From Escherichia coli (lineage in GTDB: Bacteria; Pseudomonadota; Gammaproteobacteria; Enterobacterales; Enterobacteriaceae): 64,000 nt of DNA. The DNA lies in the NCBI RefSeq assembly GCF_045037415.1, contig NZ_CP173438.1; one strand, given 5' to 3'. A program made the position numbers and the translations under genes. Position 1 is the first letter of the stretch; each line of letters starts with the position of its first letter. This document shows, piece by piece, positions 19,338 through 25,349 of the stretch. Under the pieces are notes generated by a model. It was not told the origin of the DNA. It searched no databases and saw nothing but the letters and a program-made list of their open reading frames with translations.

Positions 19338-20381
19338 ATGAGCGAGAACTCGATTCGTTTGACCCAATACAGCCACGGCGCTGGTTGCGGCTGTAAAATT
19401 TCCCCAAAAGTGTTGGAAACCATCCTGCACAGTGAGCAGGCGAAGTTTGTTGATCCGAATTTGCTTGTGGGTAATGAAACCCGCGACGATGCGGCGGTGT
19501 ACGATCTGGGCAATGGCACCAGCGTTATCAGTACCACCGACTTCTTTATGCCGATCGTTGATAATCCTTTCGATTTTGGCCGCATTGCGGCGACTAACGC
19601 CATCAGCGATATCTTTGCTATGGGCGGCAAACCGATTATGGCGATTGCGATCCTCGGCTGGCCGATTAACAAACTTTCCCCGGAAATTGCCCGCGAAGTG
19701 ACCGAAGGTGGACGCTATGCATGCCGTCAGGCGGGTATTGCGCTGGCTGGCGGTCACTCCATCGATGCGCCGGAGCCGATTTTTGGTCTGGCGGTAACGG
19801 GGATCGTACCGACCGAGCGGGTGAAGAAAAACAGTACCGCACAAGCCGGATGCAAACTGTTCCTGACGAAACCGCTGGGGATTGGCGTTCTTACCACGGC
19901 TGAGAAAAAATCACTGCTGAAACCAGAACATCAGGGACTGGCGACGGAAGTGATGTGCCGGATGAACATCGCAGGCGTGTCCTTTGCCAACATCGAAGGC
20001 GTAAAAGCGATGACCGACGTTACGGGTTTTGGTTTACTGGGGCATTTAAGCGAAATGTGTCAGGGCGCAGGTGTGCAGGCGCGCGTCGACTATGACGCGA
20101 TCCCGAAATTGCCGGGGGTTGAAGAGTACATTAAGTTGGGCGCAGTGCCTGGCGGCACCGAACGTAACTTTGCCAGCTACGGTCATCTGATGGGTGAAAT
20201 GCCGCGTGAAGTGCGCGATCTGCTGTGCGATCCGCAAACTTCTGGCGGTTTGCTGCTGGCGGTCATGCCGGAAGCAGAAAATGAGGTCAAAGCTACAGCC
20301 GCCGAGTTTGGCATTGAACTGACGGCGATTGGCGAACTGGTGCCAGCGCGCGGCGGTCGTGCCATGGTTGAGATCCGTTAA
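19338..20381 (+). CDS. selD: selenide, water dikinase (selenophosphate synthetase)
   Basis: 347 aa [23 protein letters not shown]...; AIR-synthase-like fold. Confidence 0.93.
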
Positions 20382-20385
20382 TTCA

Positions 20386-22341
20386 ATGCGGTTGTTTATT
20401 GCCGAAAAACCGAGTCTGGCGCGCGCCATTGCTGATGTCCTGCCTAAACCGCACCGGAAAGGCGATGGCTTTATCGAGTGCGGTAATGGTCAGGTGGTGA
20501 CCTGGTGTATCGGTCACCTGCTTGAGCAGGCGCAGCCAGACGCCTACGACAGCCGCTATGCGCGCTGGAATCTTGCGGATTTGCCAATTGTCCCGGAAAA
20601 GTGGCAATTACAGCCCCGACCCTCCGTGACTAAACAACTTAATGTCATCAAACGCTTCCTGCATGAAGCCAGCGAAATCGTTCACGCCGGAGACCCGGAT
20701 CGCGAAGGGCAACTGCTGGTGGATGAAGTGCTGGACTACCTGCAACTGGCACCGGAAAAGCGCCAGCAGGTACAGCGTTGTTTGATAAACGACTTGAACC
20801 CGCAGGCGGTTGAGCGGGCGATCGATCGTCTTCGCTCCAATAGCGAGTTTGTACCGCTGTGCGTTTCTGCACTGGCGCGGGCGCGGGCTGACTGGCTGTA
20901 CGGCATTAATATGACCCGTGCGTATACCATTCTCGGCCGCAATGCCGGTTATCAGGGTGTGCTTTCCGTGGGACGCGTGCAGACGCCCGTACTCGGACTG
21001 GTGGTGCGCCGCGACGAAGAGATTGAAAACTTCGTGGCGAAAGACTTCTTTGAAGTCAAAGCACATATCGTGACACCTGCCGATGAGCGGTTTACCGCTA
21101 TCTGGCAACCGAGCGAAGCGTGTGAACCGTACCAGGATGAAGAAGGGCGCTTGTTACATCGTCCACTGGCGGAGCATGTGGTTAACCGTATTAGTGGTCA
21201 ACCAGCTATTGTCACCAGCTATAACGATAAACGGGAATCAGAATCCGCGCCGCTGCCTTTTTCGCTTTCGGCGTTGCAGATTGAAGCGGCTAAACGTTTT
21301 GGTCTGAGCGCGCAGAACGTGCTTGATATCTGCCAGAAGCTGTACGAAACGTACAAGCTAATCACTTATCCGCGTTCCGATTGCCGCTATTTGCCAGAAG
21401 AACATTTTGCCGGACGCCACGCGGTGATGAATGCTATCAGCGTTCATGCACCGGATCTGTTGCCGCAGCCAGTGGTAGATCCAGATATACGCAACCGCTG
21501 TTGGGATGACAAAAAGGTCGATGCGCACCACGCCATCATTCCGACCGCACGGAGTTCTGCGATCAACCTGACGGAGAACGAAGCGAAGGTCTATAACCTG
21601 ATTGCCCGTCAGTACTTGATGCAGTTCTGCCCGGATGCGGTGTTCCGCAAGTGTGTTATCGAACTGGACATTGCCAAAGGCAAATTTGTCGCTAAAGCCC
21701 GTTTTCTTGCTGAAGCAGGCTGGCGCACGCTGTTAGGCAGCAAAGAGCGCGATGAAGAAAACGACGGCACGCCGCTGCCTGTGGTGGCGAAAGGCGATGA
21801 ATTGTTGTGCGAAAAAGGCGAAGTGGTAGAGCGGCAAACCCAGCCGCCGCGCCATTTTACCGATGCAACACTGCTTTCGGCGATGACCGGGATCGCGCGC
21901 TTTGTGCAGGACAAAGATCTGAAAAAGATCCTTCGTGCGACCGATGGTCTGGGGACAGAAGCAACGCGTGCCGGGATTATTGAACTGTTGTTCAAGCGGG
22001 GTTTCCTGACCAAAAAAGGGCGCTATATCCACTCCACCGACGCCGGAAAAGCGCTATTCCATTCGCTGCCAGAAATGGCGACGCGACCGGACATGACCGC
22101 GCACTGGGAATCGGTGCTGACGCAAATCAGCGAAAAGCAGTGTCGCTATCAGGACTTTATGCAGCCGCTGGTGGGGACATTGTACCAGTTGATTGATCAG
22201 GCAAAGCGCACGTCGGTAAGGCAGTTTCGGGGAATAATGGCTCCCGGCGGTGGAGAAGGGAAGAAAAAGGATTCGCCACGCAAGAGAGCGCCGAAAAAAA
22301 GCCCGCCATCAGAAGAGGCGGGCAATGGAGTGATAATATAA
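20386..22341 (+). CDS. topB: DNA topoisomerase III
   Basis: [16 protein letters not shown]...; Toprim and type IA topoisomerase domains; start 4 nt after selD stop. Confidence 0.93.
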
Positions 22342-22377
22342 AGGTTCTTTCAACCATCTGATACTGAAGATTTTTAT

Positions 22378-22410
22378 GGCCGGATAAGGCGTTTGCGCTG
22401 TATCCGGCAC
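22378..22410. repeat. REP (repetitive extragenic palindromic) element between topB and gdhA
   Basis: GGCCGGATAAGGCGTTTGCGCTGTATCCGGCAC resembles REP consensus. Confidence 0.55.
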
Positions 22411-22417
22411 AATTGTC

Positions 22418-23761
22418 TTAAATCACGCCCTGGCTTAACATCGCATCCGCAACCTTCACAAAACCGGCAATGTTCGCGCCCTGCACGTAGTTGGTTTGCT
22501 CACCTTCACCACCATGCTCAACACAGGCATGGTGGATATCCAGCATGATGTGATGCAAACGTGCGTCAACTTTCTCGGCTTTCCAGCCCAGGCGCGCAGC
22601 GTTTTGCGCCATTTCCAGGCCCGATGTTGCTACACCGCCAGCATTAGCCGCTTTACCCGGTGCAAACAGTACGCCTGCCTGCTGGAACAGTTCAGTCGCT
22701 TCGATGGTGGTCGGCATATTTGCCCCTTCGGCGACGGCTTTAACGCCATTGGCGATAAGCTGATGCGCGGCGTCAACATCCAGTTCGTTCTGGGTGGCGC
22801 AAGGCAGGGCGATATCAACCGGTACAGACCACGGTTGTTGGCCTTCGAGATAGACCAGACCAAATTCTTTGGCGTAATCTGCCACTCGACCATCGCGGCT
22901 GGCTTTGATTTCGATAAGGCGCGCCAGTTTCTCTTTCGTGAATCCGCTTTCATCAACTACAGTGCCGCTGGAGTCTGACGCAGTGATCACTCGAGCACCA
23001 AATTCCATCGCTTTTTCGATAGCGTACTGGGCGACGTTGCCGGAGCCAGAAACGGAAACGCGCATCCCTTCAAAACCCATACCGTGGCGTTTTAGCATTG
23101 CTTCTGTGAAATAAACCAGACCGTAGCCGGTAGCTTCCGGGCGAATAAGACTGCCGCCAAATGAAAGGCCCTTACCGGTGAAGACGCAGGCGGTATTGTT
23201 GGAGAGCTTTTTCATCATCCCCGCCATAAAGCCGACTTCACGACCACCAACGCCGATATCACCTGCCGGAACGTCAGTATCCGCGCCCAGGTGGCGATAC
23301 AGTTCAGTCATCAGCGCCTGGCAGAAACGCATAACTTCGCCTTCGCTTTTCCCTTTCGGATCAAAGTCGCTGCCGCCTTTACCACCACCCATCGGCAGAG
23401 TAGTCAGGGCATTTTTAAAGGTTTGCTCGAAGCCGAGGAATTTGAGAATGGAAAGGTTTACTGAAGGGTGGAAGCGCATACCGCCTTTGTACGGACCGAT
23501 GGCGGAGCTGAATTGCACACGCCATGCACGGTTGACCTGCACCTGGTTGCGATCATCAACCCATACTACGCGAAATTGGATCACGCGCTCCGGTTCAACC
23601 AGACGCTCCAGTAATGACATCTGACGATATTTGGGATTTTGTTCAAGAAAAGGCCAGAGTGTGGTCATTACTTCACGAACGGCTTGCGCGAACTCGGTTT
23701 GATTCGGGTCGCGCTTTTGGACATGGTTGAGGAATGACTCCAGAGAATATGTCTGATCCAT
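22418..23761 (-). CDS. gdhA: NADP-specific glutamate dehydrogenase
   Basis: 447 aa MDQTYSLESFLNHVQKRDP...; GGGKGG motif. Confidence 0.95.
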   Translation of the reverse strand: MDQTYSLESFLNHVQKRDPNQTEFAQAVREVMTTLWPFLEQNPKYRQMSLLERLVEPERVIQFRVVWVDDRNQVQVNRAWRVQFSSAIGPYKGGMRFHPSVNLSILKFLGFEQTFKNALTTLPMGGGKGGSDFDPKGKSEGEVMRFCQALMTELYRHLGADTDVPAGDIGVGGREVGFMAGMMKKLSNNTACVFTGKGLSFGGSLIRPEATGYGLVYFTEAMLKRHGMGFEGMRVSVSGSGNVAQYAIEKAMEFGARVITASDSSGTVVDESGFTKEKLARLIEIKASRDGRVADYAKEFGLVYLEGQQPWSVPVDIALPCATQNELDVDAAHQLIANGVKAVAEGANMPTTIEATELFQQAGVLFAPGKAANAGGVATSGLEMAQNAARLGWKAEKVDARLHHIMLDIHHACVEHGGEGEQTNYVQGANIAGFVKVADAMLSQGVI

Positions 23762-24728: not shown

Positions 24729-25349
24729 GTGCTAGACCGCCATCTTCATCCCCGGATTAAACCGTTGTTGCATCAGTGCGTGCGGGTTCTTGATAAACCG
24801 GGCATTACGCCAGATGGTTTAACATTAGTGGGATTTGCCATCGGCGTGCTGGCACTGCCTTTTCTGGCGCTGGGCTGGTATCTGGCGGCACTAGTCGCCA
24901 TTTTGTTGAACAGGCTGCTTGATGGTCTGGACGGTGCGCTGGCGCGGCGCAGAGGGCTTACCGACGCGGGCGGCTTTCTCGATATTTCTCTCGATTTTCT
25001 TTTTTACGCGCTGGTGCCTTTTGGGTTTATCCTCGCCGCACCGGAGCAAAACGCCCTGGCAGGCGGCTGGCTGCTGTTTGCGTTTATCGGCACGGGCAGC
25101 AGTTTTCTCGCTTTTGCTGCGCTGGCGGCGAAACATCAGATTGATAATCCTGGTTATGCGCATAAATCGTTTTATTATCTGGGCGGCTTAACCGAAGGCA
25201 GCGAGACGATTTTGCTGTTTGTTCTGAGTTGCCTCTTTCCGGCCTGTTTTCCGTGGTTTGCGTGGGTATTTGGTGCGTTGTGCTGGATGACGACCTTTAC
25301 GCGGGTGTGGAGTGGGTATCTGACGCTGAAGTCGCTCCAGCGTCAGTAA
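24729..25349 (+). CDS. ynjF: CDP-alcohol phosphatidyltransferase family membrane protein YnjF (GTG start)
   Basis: 206 aa from second GTG, 6-7 nt after AAGGAG; D-G-x-x-A-R motif. Confidence 0.8.
   Translation: MLDRHLHPRIKPLLHQCVRVLDKPGITPDGLTLVGFAIGVLALPFLALGWYLAALVAILLNRLLDGLDGALARRRGLTDAGGFLDISLDFLFYALVPFGFILAAPEQNALAGGWLLFAFIGTGSSFLAFAALAAKHQIDNPGYAHKSFYYLGGLTEGSETILLFVLSCLFPACFPWFAWVFGALCWMTTFTRVWSGYLTLKSLQRQ

Follow-up and report, generated by a model that had tools for sequence, protein, structure and literature searches.

Based on comparisons of the window, that is, the whole 64-kb stretch of Escherichia coli DNA analyzed here, with K-12, other complete E. coli genomes and related species, we propose with a probability of roughly 0.88 that its topB-gdhA site is unoccupied and of ancestral type, in a B2-type E. 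coli, and that the other forms of this site are cassette-bearing alternative alleles. Three alternative contents were found at the site in E. coli: it is empty in ~28% of the genomes, holds ynjI in ~65%, and holds an island encoding Hsp70 and J/Sel1 proteins in ~7%. As read from the sequences, this polymorphism is not a simple indel between identical flanks, since the 3' end of topB differs as well and a third state is present in strain 536. Over positions 21800-23000, the window shows 100% identity to strain SK1144 and numerous other finished genomes, and it is best assigned to a phylogroup-B2-type E. coli, identical at the topB-gdhA locus to SK1144 and to ST131 strains.

Gene order at the topB-gdhA locus

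The features of the locus, in window coordinates, are as follows.

19338..20381, + strand: selD (tblastn and ORF; the SK1144 RefSeq annotation maps to the same coordinates)
20386..22341, + strand: topB, DNA topoisomerase III, 651 aa (translation; SK1144 annotation WP_001235830.1)
22180..22341, + strand: divergent 3' end of topB, encoding a Lys/Pro-rich C-terminal tail (identity comparison; the allele linked to the empty site)
22342..22376, no strand: half of the spacer without REP, on the topB side (sequence; loose alignment with empty-site Escherichia lineages)
22377..22411, no strand: single Y-type REP hairpin (consensus match, fold energies, sub-threshold naRNA4 hit)
22418..23761, - strand: gdhA, NADP-specific glutamate dehydrogenase, 447 aa (translation; SK1144 annotation WP_000373044.1)

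TopB is full length, starting with the ATG at 20386 and ending with the TAA at 22339-22341 (+ strand), and shares 97% amino-acid identity with K-12 TopB; selD lies upstream as a conserved synteny context. GdhA is likewise full length, with the gdhA stop codon at 22418-22420 on the - strand. The two genes are convergent, and the spacer between their stops (22342-22417) measures exactly 76 bp, in agreement with the distance of about 76 bp given in an earlier note on this DNA. The RefSeq annotation of SK1144, which is 100% identical here, also lists topB and gdhA as adjacent.

The earlier note had placed a gene of about 1 kb, ynjI, at this position in K-12. This was correct: MG1655 ynjI (b1762, 1041 bp) is located between gdhA and topB, so K-12 is not a genome with adjacent topB and gdhA and ynjI placed elsewhere. 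The order in MG1655 is gdhA, a 116-bp spacer with two REPs, ynjI, a 127-bp AT-rich spacer containing the ynjI promoter region, and topB, which gives an inter-stop distance of 1284 bp as opposed to 76 bp in the window. The K-12 locus (b1761-b1763) and the window share the surrounding gene order, i.e., ynjE, ynjF, nudG, ynjH, gdhA ... topB, selD, ydjA, sppA, and both have a REP hairpin within ~10 nt of the gdhA stop, although the REPs themselves are different. Identity to K-12 is 95-100% across sppA, ydjA, selD, most of topB, and from gdhA onward, with homology restarting exactly at the gdhA stop codon. In contrast, the two forms have no intergenic sequence in common, and identity is only 67% over the last ~160 bp of topB. 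The absence of ynjI, also noted earlier, was confirmed by tblastn (E <= 1e-5), which found no match in the 64-kb window, and blastn with a word size of 7 against the K-12 insert detected no ynjI remnant in the 76-bp spacer.

Several smaller differences from K-12 were observed near the locus. The last gdhA codons (22421-22440) encode …AMLSQGVI* instead of the …AMLAQGVI* of K-12 and other Escherichia lineages, with several nucleotide changes within ~20 bp; this variant looks like a B2 allele, as the GdhA of strain 536 is identical to that encoded in the window. Local dips to 85-89% identity, with flanks at 95-100%, were present at 25118-25317 (the ynjF/nudG area) and at 20040-20139 (selD), and may represent further small recombination tracts. 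The sole match above the gathering score in a window-wide Rfam search was the ES036 (CssrF) sRNA at 42724-42766 on the - strand (42.9 bits).

Frequencies in complete E. coli genomes

All frequencies were counted over 5426 complete E. coli genomes. The junction of the window (22185-22425) was present at >=95% identity in 1531 genomes (about 28%), 1485 of them at >=99%, while topB and gdhA were contiguous in 1515/5426 and the K-12 ynjI region was detected in 3506/5426. A chimeric query that joined the ynjI region to the window junction matched 5037 genomes, the sum of 3506 and 1531, with no genome containing both; ynjI is thus not relocated elsewhere in genomes like that of the window. The possibility, raised earlier, that ynjI sits elsewhere in the source genome was therefore not supported, as the gene is absent from the 64-kb window and was undetected anywhere in all 1531 junction-bearing complete genomes. 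This set includes ST131 strains, one of them labelled O25b:H4-ST131, as well as E2348/69, which belongs to phylogroup B2.

Due to the same large set, an assembly or sampling artefact, i.e., a collapsed or mis-joined contig that omits ynjI, can be dismissed: an identical junction is shared by 1531 independently finished genomes, and RefSeq annotates topB and gdhA as adjacent.

The K-12 cassette and the 536-type island

The product of ynjI is a DUF1266 inner-membrane protein (Pfam E = 1.8e-25 for DUF1266). Its gene has a GC content of 41%, compared with 53-55% for the flanking topB and gdhA. In K-12, ynjI is activated by BglJ-RcsB and is influenced, or partly repressed, by H-NS/StpA (PMC3950696), a regulation profile that is common for acquired genes. 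The gene also appears in a strain-comparison listing (PMC10304320); published coverage consisted of these two reports, on regulation and on strain comparison, and no literature on a presence/absence polymorphism of ynjI was found. In E. coli EC24, an IS1A element interrupts the ynjI region (H31, NZ_CP182191.1 2102050-2104887), and its occurrence in at least one strain is a further sign that ynjI is dispensable.

Most genomes with neither ynjI nor the window junction have a third state, first seen in strain 536, with a 6-kb, 42% GC island in the exact same topB-gdhA interval and its own allele of the topB tail. Its coordinates are given below.

L004:14175-19792 (E. coli 536), between topB and gdhA: three-gene island, found in roughly 350/5426 genomes

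The island codes for an Hsp70-family protein and for two proteins that combine Sel1 repeats with a weak J-domain match at the N terminus. The 536 locus differs from that of the window by this 6-kb cargo and by having no REP adjoining gdhA, and no part of the island was found in the window. The hscC region of K-12 also combines Hsp70, Sel1 and DUF1266 genes, and because of this combination ynjI and the 536 island may share a functional theme. In Klebsiella spallanzanii, genes for a related Hsp70 (77% amino-acid identity) and a J/Sel1 partner were observed a few kb downstream of topB (L030:13839-17545). Just downstream of topB in strain 536, there is in addition a repeat of ~130 bp (L004:13864-13995), of which nearly every E. 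coli genome has 1-5 other copies at ~92% identity, none of which is annotated; an intergenic repeat of the ERIC/IRU type is a possible identity.

Alleles of the TopB C-terminal tail

Against K-12, topB identity is 95-100% up to the last 200 bp, where it drops first to 83% and then to 64%, with a sharp boundary at ~22180. Many of the tail differences from K-12 are synonymous, so the sequence itself has diverged, and relaxed constraint on the protein is not the whole explanation. The tail of the window (last ~160 bp; ~54 codons) is 83% identical to that of E. albertii, 82% to E200086 and 80% to SCPM8794, compared with 67% to K-12, 67% to Salmonella and 52% to strain 536. These values must be read with the nature of the segment in mind: the tail is fast-evolving and of low complexity, with ~80% identity even within Escherichia, which inflates the divergence, so that the clustering is suggestive and falls short of a robust tree. 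Directly upstream of the tail, all three E. coli forms agree over 80 nt (100% identity). Across the complete genomes, the K-12-type tail was found in 3525, the window-type in 1531 and the 536-type in 369, which together account for 5425/5426. Each cargo state has its own TopB tail allele, and this is the one mildly notable point of the locus.

The tail of the E. albertii type strain, NBRC 107761 (L008, about 6150), contains an in-frame TAG (…APSSGE*KKKASPRKR…) that would cost the last ~27 residues of TopB and that could be a sequencing error in a draft assembly.

Outgroups and the direction of change

Given the alternative states within E. coli, we located topB, gdhA, ynjI and the 536-island genes in 80 loci of different species, obtained by scanning GTDB species representatives with TopB, a set that does not include E. 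fergusonii. Nearly all sampled outgroup species have topB and gdhA as convergent neighbors, with a spacer of 0-190 bp between them that usually contains one to three REPs or other hairpins. Such short spacers were found in E. albertii, Escherichia sp. E1V33, SCPM-O-B-8794 (SCPM8794) and Salmonella enterica subsp. diarizonae, and in other genera in ~12 Citrobacter species, Pseudocitrobacter, Enterobacter, Lelliottia, Kosakonia, Kluyvera, Yokenella, Trabulsiella, Atlantibacter and others. Among the 80 loci, ynjI was present only in K-12 and in Escherichia sp. MOD1-EC7003, where it occupies the same position and its product has 91% amino-acid identity. Because the outgroups are short-spaced and ynjI is confined to Escherichia, low in GC and regulated like an acquired gene, the empty topB-gdhA site is best read as ancestral and ynjI as an Escherichia-restricted insertion. 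The presence of ynjI in the cryptic-clade MOD1-EC7003 shows that the insertion is old and that both states have long coexisted.

The spacer of the window aligns along its length with the spacers of empty-site Escherichia lineages, with the Y-type REP at the same place after the topB stop. The spacers are not of equal content: there are three REPs in E. albertii, and in E200086, SCPM8794 and E1V33 the REP is followed by further sequence that is missing in the window. The earlier note had left it undecided whether the locus represents an ancestral or a deleted state, with the REP as the mark of the junction. Of these two options the ancestral one is favored by the adjacency of the genes in the outgroups and by the alignment of both the spacer and the topB 3' end with empty-site lineages and not with K-12. 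The deleted state did not hold up, as the topB tail, the spacer and the REP match empty-site lineages and not K-12 or 536, and neither did the role given to the REP, whose orthologue occupies the same position in E. albertii and further Escherichia lineages without ynjI. A deletion scar would be recognized by the flanks of an occupied haplotype together with remnants or a shared repeat at the junction; here the flanks match empty-site lineages and there is no similarity to the K-12 insert. Judged from this alignment, the REP is an inherited resident of the spacer and not a deletion scar. Orthology of the K-12 gdhA-side REP pair to the ancestral REP cluster was also considered and set aside, as the REP types differ and REP clusters turn over fast, so that nothing follows from the comparison.

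Unrelated inserts of 1-5.6 kb were seen at the same site in other Enterobacteriaceae (loci L048, L052, L061, L070 and L035). By their ORF starts alone, these resemble MFS or TRAP-type transporters, LysR-type regulators and a PTS-like cluster, and insertion between topB and gdhA appears to recur across genera. Hot spots of chromosomal insertion and presence/absence polymorphisms of accessory genes are known from the E. coli pan-genome. The topB-gdhA site resembles such hot spots in its mutually exclusive cargoes between core genes, its low-GC inserts and its breakpoints in flanking genes; it has no feature that distinguishes it from them and is a typical example.

The REP hairpin in the spacer

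The earlier description of the spacer as essentially one REP-like palindrome stands in part: the palindrome is real, but the hairpin covers only 35 of the 76 nt, and 22342-22376 is not REP. The element is an imperfect palindrome of 35 nt with an internal mismatch, of the form GCCGGATAAGGCG...ATCCGGCA, and is extragenic, at the 3' ends of the convergent genes. At 22379-22409 it matches the Y-type REP consensus with 2 mismatches over 31 positions (0.00 expected, 100 shuffles), and the consensus used, GCCGGATAAGGCGTTNRCGCCGCATCCGGCA, agrees with the orthologous REPs of relatives (L005-L008) and with a sub-threshold naRNA4 hit. The hairpin at 22377-22411 has a predicted energy of -20.6 kcal/mol (z = -4.3) on the + strand and -18.7 kcal/mol (z = -4.1) on the - strand. 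The Rfam family naRNA4, which is REP-derived and stems from a REP cluster, scored 32.8 bits, below its gathering score of 59.5, and the Rfam search returned no other known RNA family in the spacer.

Following the definition in PMC8266576, the element is like the Y-type REPs of E. coli in being an imperfect 35-nt palindrome that is extragenic and forms a stable hairpin on both strands. It is unlike typical Y-type REPs in that it is a single unit and not a BIME pair, two stem positions are changed, and the 5' GTAG has become TATG. The same work places a conserved GTAG, the guide tetranucleotide, directly 5' of the palindrome (PMC8266576), and in the window TATG is found in its place at 22375-22378. 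Among the orthologous REPs, GTAG is intact in E200086, SCPM8794 and E. albertii, and is GTAA in E1V33. The E. coli REP transposase TnpA(REP) needs an intact GTAG and tolerates no mutation in it (PMC8266576). Because this tetranucleotide has been lost, the REP is probably immobile and no longer a substrate of TnpA(REP), and it may be viewed as a decayed copy, a REP by descent. The 76-bp spacer has this one REP only, with no inverted partner as in a BIME, and a scan of the 64-kb window at <=3 mismatches found one copy.

No intrinsic terminator was found on either strand in 22000-22800, and neither was a sigma-70 promoter; downstream of the hairpin come CACAAUUG (+ strand) and CAUAAAAAUC (- strand). 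The base of the REP stem is 6 nt from the gdhA stop and 35 nt from the topB stop. Since the element is palindromic and no terminator is present, a hairpin would be expected at the 3' ends of both convergent transcripts, where it would block 3'-5' exonucleases and attenuate transcription. The exonuclease barrier and transcription attenuation are classical REP roles (introduction and references of PMC8266576). At 6 nt past its stop codon, the hairpin may also dampen the end of gdhA translation. Liang, Rudd and Deutscher reportedly found in 2015 that a REP lying no more than ~15 nt from a stop codon can stall the ribosome as it terminates and reduce the yield of protein; given the distances of 6 nt and 35 nt, such a rule would concern gdhA and not topB. 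We predict no functional difference between the window and K-12 haplotypes at the gdhA end, because in K-12, too, a REP, though a different one, lies about as far from the gdhA stop.

How the alternative states may have arisen

Under the favored reading, a low-GC cassette of ~1.2 kb, comprising ynjI and its own promoter, would have been inserted in one Escherichia haplotype, that of K-12, and a 6-kb cassette with Hsp70 and two J-domain/Sel1 genes would have been placed in the same interval in the 536 haplotype. The three forms would then behave as alternative alleles swapped by homologous recombination, with the left crossover inside topB at ~22180 and the right crossover at or just inside the gdhA stop. 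A left crossover inside topB would cause each form to carry its own version of the TopB tail. The empty state of B2 may have been retained vertically or regained through homologous recombination, with crossovers in topB and at the gdhA end.

It is possible, although rather unlikely, that the empty haplotype (topB tail and REP spacer) was imported into B2 by homologous recombination, with a divergent Escherichia lineage as donor, and displaced an occupied allele, in which case the site would be ancestral in type and not vertically inherited. The sharp boundary in topB at ~22180, with 100% identity upstream followed by 64-83%, would fit such an import, as would the tail divergence within E. coli (67%), which equals that between E. 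coli and Salmonella over the same segment. The identical sequence right upstream in all three alleles is the pattern expected of cassette exchange with a crossover in topB. However, the sampled lineages include no near-identical donor, the best being E. albertii at 83%; the apparent divergence is inflated by the fast-evolving, low-complexity tail; and the near-identity of 1485 of the 1531 junction genomes (>=99% to the window) is also consistent with clonal inheritance inside B2.

A more far-reaching idea is that the site is an old, possibly trans-species, three-allele polymorphism in which each cargo state is inherited along with its own TopB tail, the tails diverging as much as between genera; we consider this improbable. 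If the tails also differed in function (e.g., in nucleic-acid binding by topoisomerase III), or if selection and not mere proximity kept tail and cargo linked, an exchange of cassettes would also alter a core enzyme.

Secondary loss, in which an ancestor with ynjI or a 536-type island deleted its insert precisely and left the REP at the scar, is very improbable. REPs are known as substrates for rearrangement, and occupied and empty forms do occur in close backgrounds: strain 536, which is also B2 and has an identical GdhA (WP_000373044.1), carries the island. Nevertheless, if a K-12-like or 536-like ancestor had recently lost its insert in this way, its flanks should have remained; the flanks differ, which speaks against a fresh deletion. 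The topB tail has 67% identity to K-12 and 52% to 536 as opposed to 80-83% to the empty-site lineages; the REP is orthologous to that of E. albertii, E1V33, SCPM8794 and E200086, and the gdhA-side spacer has different REPs in K-12 and none in 536. Furthermore, the spacer is without a detectable ynjI remnant, and ynjI is retained in 0/1531 of the junction-bearing genomes. Secondary loss thus appears largely refuted by the comparison of flanks.

Implications for the E. coli accessory genome

The locus is a common, ordinary polymorphism of the accessory genome. For practical work, the three sharply distinct TopB tail alleles could confuse topB allele typing or recombination analyses. The comparison corrects a bias that comes from using K-12 as the reference: relative to the "missing" ynjI, it is the occupied K-12 locus that is in the derived state, and the window has the default enterobacterial gene order. 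The gene ynjI itself, a DUF1266 gene, is a low-GC acquisition missing from ~35% of complete E. coli genomes, including those of ST131, which argues against a core role.
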